A stretch of DNA of 64,000 bases, taken from Rickettsiales bacterium. Lineage in GTDB: Bacteria; Pseudomonadota; Alphaproteobacteria; Rickettsiales; JABSSG01. The stretch spans positions 2,198 through 66,197 of the forward strand of contig JAVKEN010000012.1 of NCBI GenBank assembly GCA_040221415.1, written 5' to 3'. The notes beneath the pieces are model-generated. The model had not been told where the DNA came from, searched no databases, and was given only the letters and a program-made list of their open reading frames with translations. How positions within the stretch are numbered: position 1 is the stretch's first letter; each line of letters starts with the position of its first letter. Positions 57,101 through 61,585 of this stretch are shown here, in pieces. A program made the position numbers and the translations under genes.

Positions 57101-60059
57101 GAGCATATATGTCTCAACAACAGGTGATCAAACTTGGCAAGGTGTTAAATTAGTATCTAAATTTGTGGAATTAAAGGCTGGTACACCTGAGCACCAAGCT
57201 AAAATATCTTTACTTTCTGCATATGAGAATAGACATTATGAATTAGTTACAGAAAAATCTAAATTTAAATTCTATTTAGATGGAGGTAAATTTACTTGGG
57301 CTGAATATTCTAAAGCAGGTAAGGGAGTAGGAACATCTACAGCATTTCCAACAGTGATTCAGGTTGAAGATATGTTTTATGTTCACTCTGTAGACAGATT
57401 CTATGCGGTATCTCCTCAAATTATTGCGGATTCAGAAAATGGAGAAAGTCAAATTATTATTGATGCCAGCAATATTAATATAGATTCAGCACCAAATGTT
57501 GACTTTGAGTTTGCATTCACACGCCAATGTTCAACGGGTATTGGTTTTAGAGCTGGTTTAGATGAAGTTAGCGTATCAATATATGCTTCGTATGAAGATT
57601 CATCTTCATGGCTAAGTAAAATTACTCCGAGCACCGGTCAGATGAGTGCAGATTTTATTTCTTTAAAGGCAGATAGAATTGAAGATAGAAATATAATTTA
57701 TCATGCCCAAAGAATGGAAGAGGAAGCATCTATTATTTTTCATGATGTAGCAAAAGAAGTTGTTTTGAATAGTAAGAATACCAAATTGCTTGAAGCTGGC
57801 ATAAAATTGGGAGTGAAAAGTAATTTGGGAGCAATCAAACAAAATGCTGAAGCAGTATCTAAGACTAATGGTACACCTGAAAGTTTAATAAGCTCTGCAT
57901 TTGCTGCTTGGTCGCTATACAATAATGTTTTAACGCTTTTGTCATCATCTACAAATCACGGTATTAGCGGTGGGGTGTGGTTTTACGTTGAGGGGCAAAT
58001 AGTGTCATCAAAAACTACATATCAGTCTCCTAAACCAGTAATTATTGATGTTGAAAACTTTACCTCTATTAGTGAAGAGCTGCGCTTAGTCTCAACACAA
58101 TATAATTCTTATAAAGCTTATATAGAATCTAAATATCTTGATATTAAGGCGGATAAAACAACTTATGATTCTAAAACTATGGGATACTTAGCTAATGCTG
58201 AGATTCCTTTATTTGGCATAGGAAATATTGTGCCAACTATTGGTGTTGGGTTTAGAAAAGATAATTCTCATTTTGAGCAGCAATTTACAGCCAATATATT
58301 TGTTACCGATAGTTTAACATTAAATATAGATGGTAAGGCACGTATAGAGGGTGCTGTAATTGAATCTGGAAGTTTAGAAGCTAATTTTAATGAATTAATA
58401 ATTGAATCTTTAATAGAAGTAAGTAAGCAAGATTTAAAGGGAGCTAATGTTGCATTTAATCTTGGGAAATTTGGAGATGCAAGCTTTATAAATCAAGTTG
58501 GAGCTGAAATCAAAAAGGGTAAATCGCATGCCGTTAGCACATTAACTAGAATGTTAGGTTCACAAGAAGCACATATTGTTGTTGCTAATGCACTTAGAAT
58601 GAATGGAGCAATGATTGCTTGTGCAGAGAGAGATGAGAATGGCGAATATAGTGATCATGGTAATTTAACTCTTGAAGTTGGAAAGCTATTTGTTGAACAC
58701 ATTAGTATTTATGATAAAGGGAAAGCATTACAAGCTGCTGTATCGCTTGGAGGAAATTTATTTGTTAAGGATCAAAATGGTAATAAGAATCCATACATGA
58801 CATTAACTGGAGCAGTAAGTGGTCATTCTTATGAGGGTAAAGTTCTAGGCACAATAGGGGAGGGGAATGTTACCGTAGCAGAAGAATCTGATCTTAATCA
58901 GGCAAATAGAGATGTAACCAGAACTCAATATTTAGATAAGAATTATGATATAGATCCTATAAAGTTTTACTATACAAACAGGGATAATAGCAAGCTGAGA
59001 CTGCCATCTAGTTTATCTGAATTTGCTGAAACATTTGGAGAAACCTTGTTCGTTGATACTGGGTTAGGCACAGTATTCAAGTCAGTAACATCATATATGA
59101 ATGCTGTGCTTCACAGTTTCTCAGAAGTTAGCAAAGATAATGAAATTCAAGATCAATTATCTCAAGAATTATCTCCAGAAGAAATGCGATATATTGCTGA
59201 AAGAATTGGAGGAAAACTTGAGATCAATATAGATGAAGCTGCGAGCAGTGCGAAGCTATTCCTAACACTTAAGCTTATTCAGGATGGATATTCTCATGAG
59301 GATGCAGTTGAGATTGCGATTAATTCAGTAAATCATGTTTTAAGCTCTCATGATCCTGAGGTTAATGAAGTAGCATTACCAGCATTAGCCGGAGCTGCAC
59401 GCGGGGTATTTGTAGCAGTACGAGGATGTATGCAAAACCCAGCATGTGTTGCTAGATTTAAAGAGTTATTAACTGACACAGTGTTCTTACTTGGACTTGC
59501 TGAAGATTCAAAACTCAAAATGCAAGATGTAGATAAGGAGAGGAGATCTGGGCAGATCTTAGGCACTCCTATTGAGGAAGAGGCTAGTAAACCTAAGGTT
59601 CTTAGCACTCCTGAAAACGATGATGCTAATAAACCGCAAATATTAGACACCCCAATTAAAGATGATGTAAGCAAGGTGCAGATTTTAGATACTCCTATCC
59701 ATGATAAAAATGAGGGTTATAAAGATCAGGGATTTGACATTCATGAAAATGATCCATCAGTTTTTGCAAATGAAGCTGATGATCCATATAAGGAAGCTAT
59801 GAATGGCGGAAGACATCATAAATGGGCAGAGAAATATATAGATAAACCTTCAAAAGAATTGGAAAAAGGGATAAAATCTTTTGAAAAACAAATAAAACTT
59901 CATAAAGAAAAAATAAAAATACCAGAGAAATACAATACTGGATGGAAAGATTTTCCCCAAGACAGAAAAGATTCATTGTTGGAAAGGTGGCCTAATGATA
60001 TAAAACGTTTGCAAGAACAACAATTTATATTGAAAAAAATTTTGGAGAGCAGGAAATGA
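54138..60059 (+). CDS. Giant polymorphic toxin: filamentous-hemagglutinin/CdiA-like beta-helical protein with a variable C-terminal domain
   Basis: 1973 aa with a GTG start preceded by 'aggag'. FHA-like repeats are visible: 'GDISLKAFNMVLSEKVRSGGDISIQAINNLALQT' and 'AKGDINLLAGGGIVITGTEIIGDSVYIKADGELYI'. The junction motif 'DIDPIKFYYTNRDN' (nt ~58947) is followed by a unique C-terminal region. A small downstream ORF overlaps the stop. Confidence 0.85.
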   Translation: MASDSYEVFQSDFFAGSGLLYVPLEDIYEYYQENNSTNSTLVYSYVIETTPIDTWLDPDVGKKTVLKELTYKDSIPQEYHCESDHEGLILVSTEFPVNLDGQLSSSCALNLTIISHLAINVDNATFSGFSQVNLVSGVTEVSKYDYTVNGQIARPIKVDYLYADSVTINSGKVSFNKKIYLSRDLTVDSNNHHVEVSQCGRVFVGGDFSASNFFHFMNLGVIDVQGSAALEGTSAFNFNIMKVFEDLNFQGEQFHNLKFLHVLGKADYEVKYTLVNTERSFMHYGGLSVNSDSEDGVRKFVNIGTIEIEGSPSFINAEKIDLLSTEYKKNFKQPLPRMSFNVPGSHGQCSGKMDSFAIEPEPSKFISNSDLTFKFNKWFQTYSLLYSQKDIYLNGPNAQVELVSYNLWVSIFCHKAVVQKYFDEYVSPNIKYEEFKRGLHYNPEEGNLVRTTDDYPFPAKNPQIYAEGNVEFNIGELISGVGFPINNKYDSIFYIRYDPPERIKEIANGDKIPDEIQTSLNNNKALALIPKHHYSQEKPQYGIAILSQGDSDNTFVFNPIDITDLYKSAYRGFFREHFEENHQGNSLVSLDADLIPTQYQVSIYNSKNYNEPSIGDYFYYNYVYKSEIFKSLGVIIGQDQINLFDSLYKNCIDASKVLGFNLPINNIDQLDINKLWFPVACPTYTTECPRGIEKCINVPLYFNDRILQDYVSDHTIYAGNGISIDVAGNMLTNFYDSIKSNGSIKINIGKSALVMGTIEGGQIDINVGENYLNLATIDSVGDISLKAFNMVLSEKVRSGGDISIQAINNLALQTIVSLYKTSTLSSHTVSSNIMSESSLNAKGDINLLAGGGIVITGTEIIGDSVYIKADGELYIVPAELYNEVTTWGKKFYSSHKSLQLHRSLISSESGDITLDIQGKAYLSGVMTNSNQAIVATTNDIEVLNPSEWESQIVIVKKKGFLGSAIGASQRTNSSYEATLLGSTYKAVESIYVSTTGDQTWQGVKLVSKFVELKAGTPEHQAKISLLSAYENRHYELVTEKSKFKFYLDGGKFTWAEYSKAGKGVGTSTAFPTVIQVEDMFYVHSVDRFYAVSPQIIADSENGESQIIIDASNINIDSAPNVDFEFAFTRQCSTGIGFRAGLDEVSVSIYASYEDSSSWLSKITPSTGQMSADFISLKADRIEDRNIIYHAQRMEEEASIIFHDVAKEVVLNSKNTKLLEAGIKLGVKSNLGAIKQNAEAVSKTNGTPESLISSAFAAWSLYNNVLTLLSSSTNHGISGGVWFYVEGQIVSSKTTYQSPKPVIIDVENFTSISEELRLVSTQYNSYKAYIESKYLDIKADKTTYDSKTMGYLANAEIPLFGIGNIVPTIGVGFRKDNSHFEQQFTANIFVTDSLTLNIDGKARIEGAVIESGSLEANFNELIIESLIEVSKQDLKGANVAFNLGKFGDASFINQVGAEIKKGKSHAVSTLTRMLGSQEAHIVVANALRMNGAMIACAERDENGEYSDHGNLTLEVGKLFVEHISIYDKGKALQAAVSLGGNLFVKDQNGNKNPYMTLTGAVSGHSYEGKVLGTIGEGNVTVAEESDLNQANRDVTRTQYLDKNYDIDPIKFYYTNRDNSKLRLPSSLSEFAETFGETLFVDTGLGTVFKSVTSYMNAVLHSFSEVSKDNEIQDQLSQELSPEEMRYIAERIGGKLEINIDEAASSAKLFLTLKLIQDGYSHEDAVEIAINSVNHVLSSHDPEVNEVALPALAGAARGVFVAVRGCMQNPACVARFKELLTDTVFLLGLAEDSKLKMQDVDKERRSGQILGTPIEEEASKPKVLSTPENDDANKPQILDTPIKDDVSKVQILDTPIHDKNEGYKDQGFDIHENDPSVFANEADDPYKEAMNGGRHHKWAEKYIDKPSKELEKGIKSFEKQIKLHKEKIKIPEKYNTGWKDFPQDRKDSLLERWPNDIKRLQEQQFILKKILESRK

Positions 60060-61585: not shown

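Follow-up and report, generated by a model that had tools for sequence, protein, structure and literature searches.

A probable polymorphic toxin locus with a displaced orphan toxin-tip and immunity cassette on a conjugative element of a Rickettsiales bacterium

Why does a short coding segment near the 3' end of a very large gene recur downstream, at the beginning of a reading frame that is otherwise unrelated to that gene? This question is raised by a 64,000-nucleotide stretch of DNA from a Rickettsiales bacterium (NCBI GenBank assembly GCA_040221415.1, contig JAVKEN010000012.1, positions 2,198 to 66,197; hereafter, the window), in which a gene for a 1973-residue protein is followed by a small open reading frame (ORF), a second long frame and another small ORF (Table 1). 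The 1973-residue protein is identical to the NCBI entry ‘MAG: hypothetical protein RLN62_02745 [Rickettsiales bacterium]’ from a 66,386-nt contig (MAG, metagenome-assembled genome), which is P0001 in our set of family members. We consider it likely that positions 54138-62121 form a polymorphic-toxin locus on a conjugative element, in which a main toxin and its putative immunity gene are followed by a displaced orphan cassette, made up of a second toxin tip and a second putative immunity gene.

The recurring segments, which we call junction copies J1 (main gene) and J2 (orphan), are similar at both the protein and the nucleotide level. A BLASTP comparison of the main C-terminus with the frame open from 60323 aligns residues 1605-1648 (58950-59081) with 60332-60463, without gaps and with 27/44 identities and 33/44 positives (E=2e-15); in this alignment IDPIKFYYTNRDNSKLRLPSSLSEFAETFGETLFVDTGLGTVFK pairs with IDPIKFYYTNRDNGKQKLPGSFEELQESLGEALFVETGLSDLYE, and nothing significant is found for the remainder of the main C-terminus. 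At the nucleotide level, blastn gives 76.7% identity over 90 nt between 58925-59014 and 60308-60396 (E=2e-13), and no exact run is longer than 12 nt. Only two sites in the 64 kb, at 58953 and 60335 and both on the plus strand, fit GAYCCNATHAARTTYTAYTAYAC, the degenerate DNA pattern for DPIKFYYT; the chance expectation is 0.09 matches, and none of 100 shuffled sequences had two or more. The first-pass annotation of this DNA had aligned nucleotides ∼58947-59070 with ∼60329-60450 by eye and had read the same match in the proteins, and both its coordinates and its reading hold up in these alignments. The DNA similarity begins about 25 nt upstream of the limit given there, where TQYLDKN in the main gene faces THQYLDKN in the orphan. 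A 1-nt indel lies within this upstream part of J2, and the orphan frame is therefore closed by the TAA at 60320-60322.

The pattern of differences between the two copies bears on their age. Identity is 90% over the first 39 nt of the in-frame block and falls to 58% over the 81 nt that follow, while past V[DE]TGL the ungapped nucleotide identity is only 36% over the next 150 nt, which agrees with the complete divergence that had been proposed. Among the 44 aligned codons, 12 are the same in both copies, 15 have synonymous differences only and 17 have non-synonymous ones, and the first 13 codons contain four synonymous and no non-synonymous differences. Thus, J1 and J2 appear to have diverged long ago under protein-level selection, as parts of different functional toxins, and J2 is not a recent local duplicate. 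We also noted that the shared block ends in D-x-G-[LF] (VDTGL at 59052-59066 and VETGL at 60434-60448; DFGF and DLGL in the related locus L006), and that this is the point at which main and orphan copies diverge.

The main protein has many relatives, which we found in an exhaustive HMMER search with residues 775-1973 against 1.84 billion representatives (E≤1e-3). The 615 matches are of two classes, about 40 body homologues, many of them 1800-2300 residues long (E down to 4e-172), and about 100 proteins of widely varying size whose match is confined to the last ∼95 residues of the main protein. A word-index protein search with the whole main protein returned only the protein itself, and no significant Pfam, NCBIfam or PDB-sequence match was obtained for it. 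Fil_haemagg_2 repeats are present in 15 of the 23 full-length body homologues (Pfam; best E=4e-16), and the main protein is placed in the hemagglutinin family because it is homologous to these repeat-bearing proteins. Other Pfam domains among the 23 members are RNAse_A_bac (the bacterial CdiA-CT RNase A) or Cytotoxic, as C-terminal ends, and PT-TG or LysM. The distant member P0026 has a two-partner secretion (TPS) domain (E=2.8e-8, 34.4 bits versus a Pfam cutoff of 33.5); TPS domains had been suspected by eye in P0042 and P0046, and Pfam backs this domain only in P0026. The named sources of family members are Rickettsiales, Midichloriaceae and Alphaproteobacteria MAGs, and two members carry informative labels, ‘adhesin HecA-like repeat protein’ from its source and, for a homologue on a plasmid of Candidatus Bandiella (Midichloriaceae), ‘hemagglutinin repeat-containing protein’ from NCBI. 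On this evidence, we class the family as a divergent branch of the TpsA/CdiA-type filamentous proteins. On the Ca. Bandiella woodruffii plasmid (NZ_CP110821), the gene for the family member (L001 4198-10317) overlaps at its 5' end ltrA, a group II intron reverse-transcriptase gene (2847-4253), and the annotated N-terminus of this homologue may be a product of intron insertion.

The junction coincides with the boundary between the conserved body and the variable tips of this family. We anchored 34 homologues on the junction, aligned 200 residues on either side and calculated the mean pairwise column identity, which is 0.31-0.59 over residues 1463-1532, about 0.33 over residues 1563-1592 (ATIGxG...NRD), 0.27 in residues 1603-1612 (YDIDPIKFYY), and 0.10-0.16, the background level, from residue 1613 on. 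Since conservation collapses right after residue 1612, we take the YDIDPIKFYY block to be the family's body/tip boundary. The best-match stretches of the body homologues in the HMMER search end at query positions 838-904, that is, residues 1612-1678, and the family hidden Markov model (HMM; alignment A5) matches the last conserved body module with a score of 173.6 (E=8e-52). The boundary motif that is common to the family is ...ATIG[KE]G...NRD[VL]n..[AQ]...[YF][DN][IV]x[PT][IL]xxY. By contrast, scans of 185,579 GTDB species genomes and of JGI metagenome contigs for the literal motif ([DG]IDPIKFY or YTNRDN[SG]K) found no relatives; DPIKFYYTNRDN was not seen outside this contig, and is thus not a family signature. 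The first-pass annotation had proposed that a database search with the junction motif would show whether it demarcates variable tips in other genomes; the boundary role in homologues was borne out, as the 34-homologue profile shows, and the literal DPIKFYYTNRDN as a family-wide marker was not. The extension of about 30 residues that is common to the main gene and the orphan (TNRDN...FV[DE]TGL) is a feature of a subfamily: its DxG[LF] end is present in the window main gene, in both L006 copies and in L015, and P0003, P0004 and P0025 share ...YYT.LR..DF.LPK.P.[ED]FL[EK]......[DE]D[LF]G[FL]. A profile made from these three proteins alone matches main residues 1590-1643 (E=8.5e-7).

Beyond the junction, the main C-terminal region consists of a variable middle, which has no BLASTP similarity to the orphan, and a terminal domain, tip 1, which recurs on unrelated proteins. 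About 90-100 homologues of tip 1 were found, in most of which it is at the extreme C-terminus; its carriers include a Chlamydiota RHS protein, a Leptospira weilii PT-HINT toxin and an unannotated fragment of the Simkania plasmid pSn, and the family member P0010 ends in it (E=1.4e-22). An AlphaFold2 model of tip 1, based on a 30-sequence alignment, is a helical hairpin (pLDDT 95.8, pTM 0.83), in which residues A9, H15, H44, P51 and W73 (tip numbering) are invariant; a Foldseek comparison of this model with the PDB gave only coiled-coil noise (best E=1.4). The 81-residue ORF that overlaps the main toxin stop is homologous to the ORF directly after tip 1 both in Simkania pSn (36% identity, E=3e-13) and in L. 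weilii (E=4e-9), and its product has no significant Pfam, NCBIfam or PDB-sequence match. A repeat similar to those of the main toxin linker, STP[IV]HENKG, precedes the tip in the related locus L013.

The orphan copy begins 2 nt after the stop of putative immunity gene 1 and has no head. Neither ATG nor GTG is found near the 5' end of its open frame, the first start codon is the TTG at 60404, and NCBI annotates it as the 385-residue hypothetical protein RLN62_02755. No significant Pfam, NCBIfam or PDB-sequence match was obtained for the frame; its residues 234-419 match the C-terminus of the full-length family member P0009 (E=4e-20), its terminal ∼100 residues match the tips of Streptomyces RHS and PT-TG proteins, and its tip also matches a module in the CdiA-VENN orphan array of Cronobacter pCDU1, which is annotated with VENN pre-toxin fragments. 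The structure model of this tip is mediocre (pLDDT 71, from a 3-sequence alignment), and Foldseek found no match to it in the PDB. The product of the 179-residue ORF that follows shares 39% identity (E=5e-27) with that of the ORF just downstream of P0009 in locus L016 and 26% with that of the ORF after the homologous Cronobacter tip, and the only family match that it gave is a sub-threshold one to NCBIfam SCO4402 (E=9e-11). Thus, the orphan tip and its putative immunity gene occupy the expressed position in the relative P0009/L016, which agrees with the first-pass view of the downstream pair as an orphan toxin and immunity module; the other element of that view, that each toxin frame is followed by its own overlapping small ORF, is seen in the two ATGA overlaps. 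Each tip travels with its own putative immunity gene as a unit, in loci of the Rhs, HINT, PT-TG and CdiA-VENN kinds.

In six family members (P0004, P0013, P0029, P0034, P0037 and P0062), an acidic motif, [GS]xP..DP[DN][DN]..[DE]P[DE], stands just before the tip, 78-113 residues from the C-terminus; it is also present in the L016 orphan and is not in the window protein. This motif suggests a second modular joint, between the middle (possibly entry) module and the tip. CdiA-CT regions have a two-domain organization, with an entry and a toxin domain.

Orphans are common in this toxin family. We compared the family HMM of the pre-junction module with six-frame translations of 14 related loci, and four relatives (L006, L011/L017, L013 and L016) proved to have, downstream of the first copy, another one that is truncated at its 5' end. 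These orphans keep 45-240 residues of the body and diverge from the main copy at the same junction, so that the position homologous to the window junction is a boundary in its homologues as well. In L006, an overlapping 141-residue gene comes after the main gene (P0004), and behind it lies a headless copy with about 240 residues of body at ∼85% identity; main and orphan diverge right after D[FL]G[FL]K, the position of V[DE]TGL in the window, and the orphan is decaying, with an internal stop. In L016, P0009 and its orphan are near-identical through ...NLNRNLGTAKSWKEYYDMEP[LI]RVY[IV]PLE and then diverge. As substrates for recombination, the main/orphan repeats of these relatives are much better than that of the window: the repeat spans 135 nt in L016 (96% identity, exact run 111 nt), 358 nt in L013 (92%) and 785 nt in L006 (88%), and exact runs range from 75 to 111 nt. 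The downstream module of L013 carries the C-terminal region that is found on a 5'-open main gene in L011 and L017; these three loci are lake MAGs from related samples, and one C-terminal region is therefore in different positions in related genomes. The ends of the L013 contig (5.8 kb; 1-78 and 5736-5813) are 100% identical over 78 nt, which probably means that the assembler looped through tandemly arrayed toxin modules. The order of the L013 modules is thus to be treated with caution.

How might such a locus have arisen? We propose that a pre-toxin junction peculiar to this family (...GTIGEG...NRDV...YDIDPIKFYY...DTGL) closes the conserved body, that the exchangeable C-terminal region would consist of the middle module, the linker and the tip of about 95 residues, and that the 81-residue gene would encode the cognate immunity protein. 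The orphan would then be a 5'-truncated, frame-broken junction remnant joined to a different C-terminal region and tip, with its own 179-residue immunity gene. A C-terminal/immunity module of a diverged family member may have recombined into the conserved 3' part of the body, and as a result the other module would have stayed, or been put, downstream in headless form. The orphan would thus be a module brought in from elsewhere or else a tip displaced long ago; a displacement or fossil route, as in cdi and rhs loci, is the most likely one, with the direction of displacement presumed. Work on cdi and rhs systems has produced two models of orphans (PMC4927057): under the ‘fossil/displacement’ model they are kept for immunity, and under the ‘silent reservoir’ model homologous recombination activates them. 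The fossil/immunity model fits the window better than the silent-reservoir model. Read-through or coupled expression of the 179-residue gene could protect the bearer against neighbours that deploy the orphan tip, and immunity is the most likely present role of the orphan, with service as a genetic reservoir coming second; expression of the orphan and its immunity gene is presumed here. Both the toxicity of the tips and the immunity functions of the small ORFs are predictions from sequence.

The orphan might instead be a live switching cassette, in which RecA-mediated recombination between J1 and J2 fuses the orphan tip to the main gene, as with the Salmonella rhs orphan, so that subpopulations deploy a second toxin. 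The architecture permits such recombination in cdi and rhs loci (PMC4927057). In the relatives L016, L006 and L013 the repeats shared by main gene and orphan are long and nearly identical, and the same C-terminal region is seen at different positions in related lake MAGs. In the window, however, the repeat is about 90 nt long at 76.7% identity with no exact run beyond 12 nt, and the event would delete immunity gene 1. Efficient RecA recombination usually needs about 20-30 nt of perfect identity, and the window repeat falls well short of this. J1 and J2 are too diverged, and hence a poor substrate for homologous recombination now. The first-pass annotation had held that the orphan can replace the expressed tip by recombination, and this claim is sound for the architecture and does not extend to these two copies (77% over 90 nt, 12-nt run); we regard present-day switching as very unlikely. 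A different reading makes the downstream frame an independent, stand-alone toxin-antidote pair, either the 385-residue RLN62_02755 or a 393-residue product from the TTG at 60404, with a mere vestige of the junction. Both the 393-residue TTG-start ORF and the annotated 385-residue protein exist, the frame is intact over 419 codons and not yet decayed, and, according to PMC11077975, the CRCT/CRCA modules of Rickettsiales are found both integrated in large toxins and standing alone. Nevertheless, the frame has no ATG or GTG start, and purine-rich stretches lie only 0-2 nt upstream of the candidate TTG codons (60404 and 60428), a poor spacing. Moreover, it begins inside the conserved junction of a family of ∼2000-residue proteins, the homologous tip is C-terminal on the full-length P0009, and the product would be without a delivery domain, all of which make this reading quite improbable.

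We also considered that the similarity might be an artefact or a decaying remnant, arising from a chimeric MAG assembly of strain variants or from the last piece of a tandem full-length paralogue. The sequence is indeed a MAG contig, and the identical 78-nt ends of L013 suggest that repeats confuse assemblers at such loci. However, the junction copies are only 77% identical, so that an assembler would neither collapse nor wrongly join them; the orphan begins 2 nt past the stop of immunity gene 1, with an intact 419-codon frame and an intact overlapping immunity gene; four independent relatives, from different samples, have the same arrangement; and the abundant synonymous differences argue against a recent tandem duplication. 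We find this explanation scarcely credible.

Several observations do weigh against our interpretation of a main toxin followed by a displaced orphan cassette. The data come from a MAG contig. The window main protein has no Pfam match to hemagglutinin repeats at E≤0.1, and both tips are without a Pfam, PDB-sequence or fold match. The junction profile from P0003, P0004 and P0025 does not significantly match the orphan copy (E=4.4), and the homology of the orphan junction thus rests on the window's own main gene. Finally, we found no signal peptide, TPS domain or CdiB-like gene in the window. The main N-terminus (MASDSYEVFQSDFFAGSG...) has no basic or hydrophobic signal, its first 61 residues being without Lys, Arg or a hydrophobic core; no Pfam match at E≤1, and hence no TPS domain (PF05860), was found in the first 330 residues, nor did Pfam find a TPS domain in P0003. 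This N-terminus resembles those of P0003 and P0004 and is therefore taken as genuine, and the main ORF cannot be extended upstream. No CdiB/TpsB protein (POTRA or ShlB domains) was found by Pfam among the window ORFs of at least 400 residues.

Contact-dependent delivery of the window toxin would thus be only an analogy. According to PMC11077975, all Rickettsiales genomes lack CdiB, and in this and a second article Rickettsiales hemagglutinin-like toxins with CRCT/CRCA modules are discussed alongside the possibly multi-purpose rvh type IV secretion system (T4SS) (PMC11077975; PMC9111745). It is conceivable, though unlikely in our view, that the window protein represents a CdiA-derived lineage whose two-partner secretion was lost, which shares a conserved acidic N-terminus with P0003 and P0004 and which is exported or delivered by a T4SS, either the element's own F-type system or rvh, with its own junction (NRD...IxPIxxY...DxG[LF]) perhaps serving as a processing site. 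If so, this would be a polymorphic toxin system with orphan cassettes that is borne on a conjugative element and coupled to a T4SS. An 888-residue TrbL/VirB6-family gene (L006 5494-8160) lies about 1.8 kb upstream of the P0004 toxin gene, on a chromosome-like contig; its product may belong to the Rickettsiales rvh T4SS, and the adjacency may be coincidental.

One of the closest known systems is CdiA/CdiI of E. coli, Cronobacter, Burkholderia and others, in which orphan cdiA-CT/cdiI modules occur. This system and the window locus both have a very large protein, of the filamentous-hemagglutinin type to which the window protein is assigned by homology, in which a short pre-toxin junction separates a conserved body from a hypervariable C-terminus, an immunity gene immediately downstream, and 5'-truncated orphan toxin/immunity pairs in which part of the junction is retained; the two-part C-terminal region also resembles the entry and toxin domains of CdiA-CT. 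They differ in that the window protein has neither a Sec signal nor a TPS domain and the 64-kb window has no CdiB/TpsB, in the host, which is a member of the Rickettsiales, and in the location of the locus on an F-type conjugative element. They differ also in the junction, which is NRD...[YF][DN][IV]xP[IL]xxY (here YDIDPIKFYY...DTGL) instead of VENN: PT-VENN (PF04829) has no match in the window protein or in any of the 23 family members, and hhalign of the family pre-toxin profile with a VENN pre-toxin orphan gave a probability of 0.2%. Thus, three features that define CdiA, the TPS domain, CdiB and VENN, are lacking from the window protein or its locus. The general features of a polymorphic toxin system are present, namely a conserved body with a variable tip, tips on unrelated bodies, co-varying putative immunity genes and orphans.

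The Rhs/YD-repeat toxins of Salmonella, Serratia and Leptospira have a similar modularity of tip and immunity gene and orphans that share the core-end junction, and both window tips are also found on RHS-core or PT-HINT proteins. The window body is assigned by homology to the beta-helical hemagglutinin type and is not an Rhs shell; RHS/YD repeats are missing, the window protein and its 22 relatives having no RHS-family match in Pfam or NCBIfam; there is no PxxxxDPxGL motif, the junction sequence being different; and the likeness between the D-x-G-[LF] end of the window block and the DPxGL core-end motif of Rhs is superficial. The suggestion in the first-pass annotation that the junction plays the part of VENN or of the Rhs motif with a different sequence is consistent with these results, since neither signature occurs in the window protein or its relatives. 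MafB/MafI of Neisseria likewise has downstream arrays of alternative 3' cassettes and immunity genes, whereas MafB is small, with a DUF1020 N-terminal domain and a different junction, and no similarity to it was detected here.

Closer in taxonomy are the Rickettsiales toxins themselves. Two articles describe large hemagglutinin-like polymorphic toxins with interchangeable C-terminal ‘warheads’ and adjacent antidotes in Rickettsiales genomes and mobilomes (Verhoeve et al. 2022, PMC9111745; Verhoeve et al. 2024, PMC11077975), and the second reports two identical bodies with different warheads in the endosymbiont Ac37b (PMC11077975). The window locus resembles these CRCT/CRCA toxins in its taxonomic setting, including the Midichloriaceae (Bandiella) homologue, and in concept, whereas its tips are not of the rCRCT-1 or rCRCT-3a types. 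Hemagglutinin-like toxins of Rickettsiales with swappable warheads have therefore already been published, while this junction motif and the orphan arrays were not found described in the searched passages of PMC11077975, in which the terms ‘orphan’, ‘pre-toxin’ and ‘VENN’ each occur 0 times.

Orphan cassettes and pre-toxin junctions drive the diversification of contact-dependent inhibition (CDI) and Rhs toxins, and the same logic is seen here in a divergent family of uncultured Rickettsiales-like bacteria, most members of which have no recognizable type Vb export components. The boundary motif NRD...[YF][DN][IV]xP[IL]xxY, with DxG[LF] in one subfamily, can be searched for and could be used to annotate tips and orphan arrays in Rickettsiales, Midichloriaceae and related MAGs, where such genes are now labelled ‘hypothetical protein’. 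The locus sharpens a question from the Rickettsia literature, of how hemagglutinin-like toxins are exported without CdiB and what they target. Both tip domains are widespread, are accompanied by putative immunity genes that are conserved with them, and may represent new toxin activities.

Table 1. Coordinates of the toxin locus and of associated features in the 64,000-nt window
Feature	Position	Strand	Description
Main polymorphic toxin gene (putative)	54138..60059	+	1973 aa; CdiA-like (filamentous-hemagglutinin-like) body and variable C-terminal region
Last conserved body module (pre-toxin region)	58533..58976	+	aa ∼1466-1613; ends ...GTIGEGNV...NRDV...YDIDPIKFYY
Junction copy J1	58925..59066	+	In-frame block 58950-59066 = aa 1605-1643, IDPIKFYYTNRDN...FVDTGL
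Variable middle of main C-terminal region	59067..59771	+	Helical segment, Cys-pair hydrophobic module, four repeats
Cys-pair hydrophobic module	59304-59498 (aa 1723-1787)	+	Matches Bandiella plasmid homologue aa 1847-1907, E=2e-5
Four ‘[IV]L[GSD]TP...’ repeats	∼59553-59705	+	ILGTPIEEE, VLSTPENDD, ILDTPIKDD, ILDTPIHDK; read from sequence
Toxin tip 1 (predicted)	59772..60056	+	Last ∼95 aa (aa ∼1879-1973), helical domain
Putative immunity gene 1	60056..60301	+	81 aa; start overlaps main toxin stop (ATGA)
Junction copy J2, orphan 5' end	60303..60448	+	In-frame 60332-60448, IDPIKFYYTNRDN...FVETGL
J2 out-of-frame remnant THQYLDKN	60303-60331	+	1-nt indel; TAA at 60320-60322
Orphan C-terminal toxin frame (predicted)	60323..61585	+	419 open codons; tip domain ∼61025-61582
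Putative immunity gene 2	61582..62121	+	179 aa; start overlaps orphan stop (ATGA)
Conjugation genes	22486-41638	-	TraB/TrbI, TraC, TraN, TraH, TraG, TraD-type coupling protein, TrwC-type relaxase
ParA and ParB	48277-50099		

The window has a G+C content of about 33%. A Pfam scan of its ORFs identified a complete F-type conjugation set, which lies about 11 kb upstream of the main toxin gene on the same element, and given this set together with ParA and ParB, the toxin locus is on a conjugative plasmid or integrative element. A megablast search of PLSDB plasmids with 53000-63500 gave no match, an Rfam scan of the window found nothing, and a promoter and terminator scan of 53000-64000 gave counts near the shuffled expectation. 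Immediately downstream of parA/parB, at 50100-51320, there are 3-4 copies of a direct repeat of ∼380 bp that are 72-94% identical, each with a palindrome of the GGTTCGCCGCGGCGAAC type, and this array is probably a partition site or iteron region.

In the window, a RhuM-Fic fusion gene (20631-21611, plus strand) adjoins the relaxase gene, and the relative P0005 (Rickettsiales UBA6177) has TraD, TrwC, a RhuM-Fic gene (L007 24507-25499, minus strand) and an integrase as neighbours; the presence of RhuM-Fic and conjugation genes in both places suggests that related mobile elements carry this toxin family. The ORF at 17152-18288 (minus strand; 378 residues) matches the OTT_1508-like deaminase domain at a level that barely clears the cutoff (PF14441, E=2.5e-6); domains of this class are typical of polymorphic toxins, and the ORF may be a second toxin-type gene on the element. 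The 588-residue FG-GAP repeat protein encoded at 5233-6999 (minus strand; E=1.6e-32) and the 1140-residue protein encoded at 8184-11606 (plus strand), which has a weak class-3 lipase match (E=3.5e-4, below cutoff), are possible effector-type cargo of the element.

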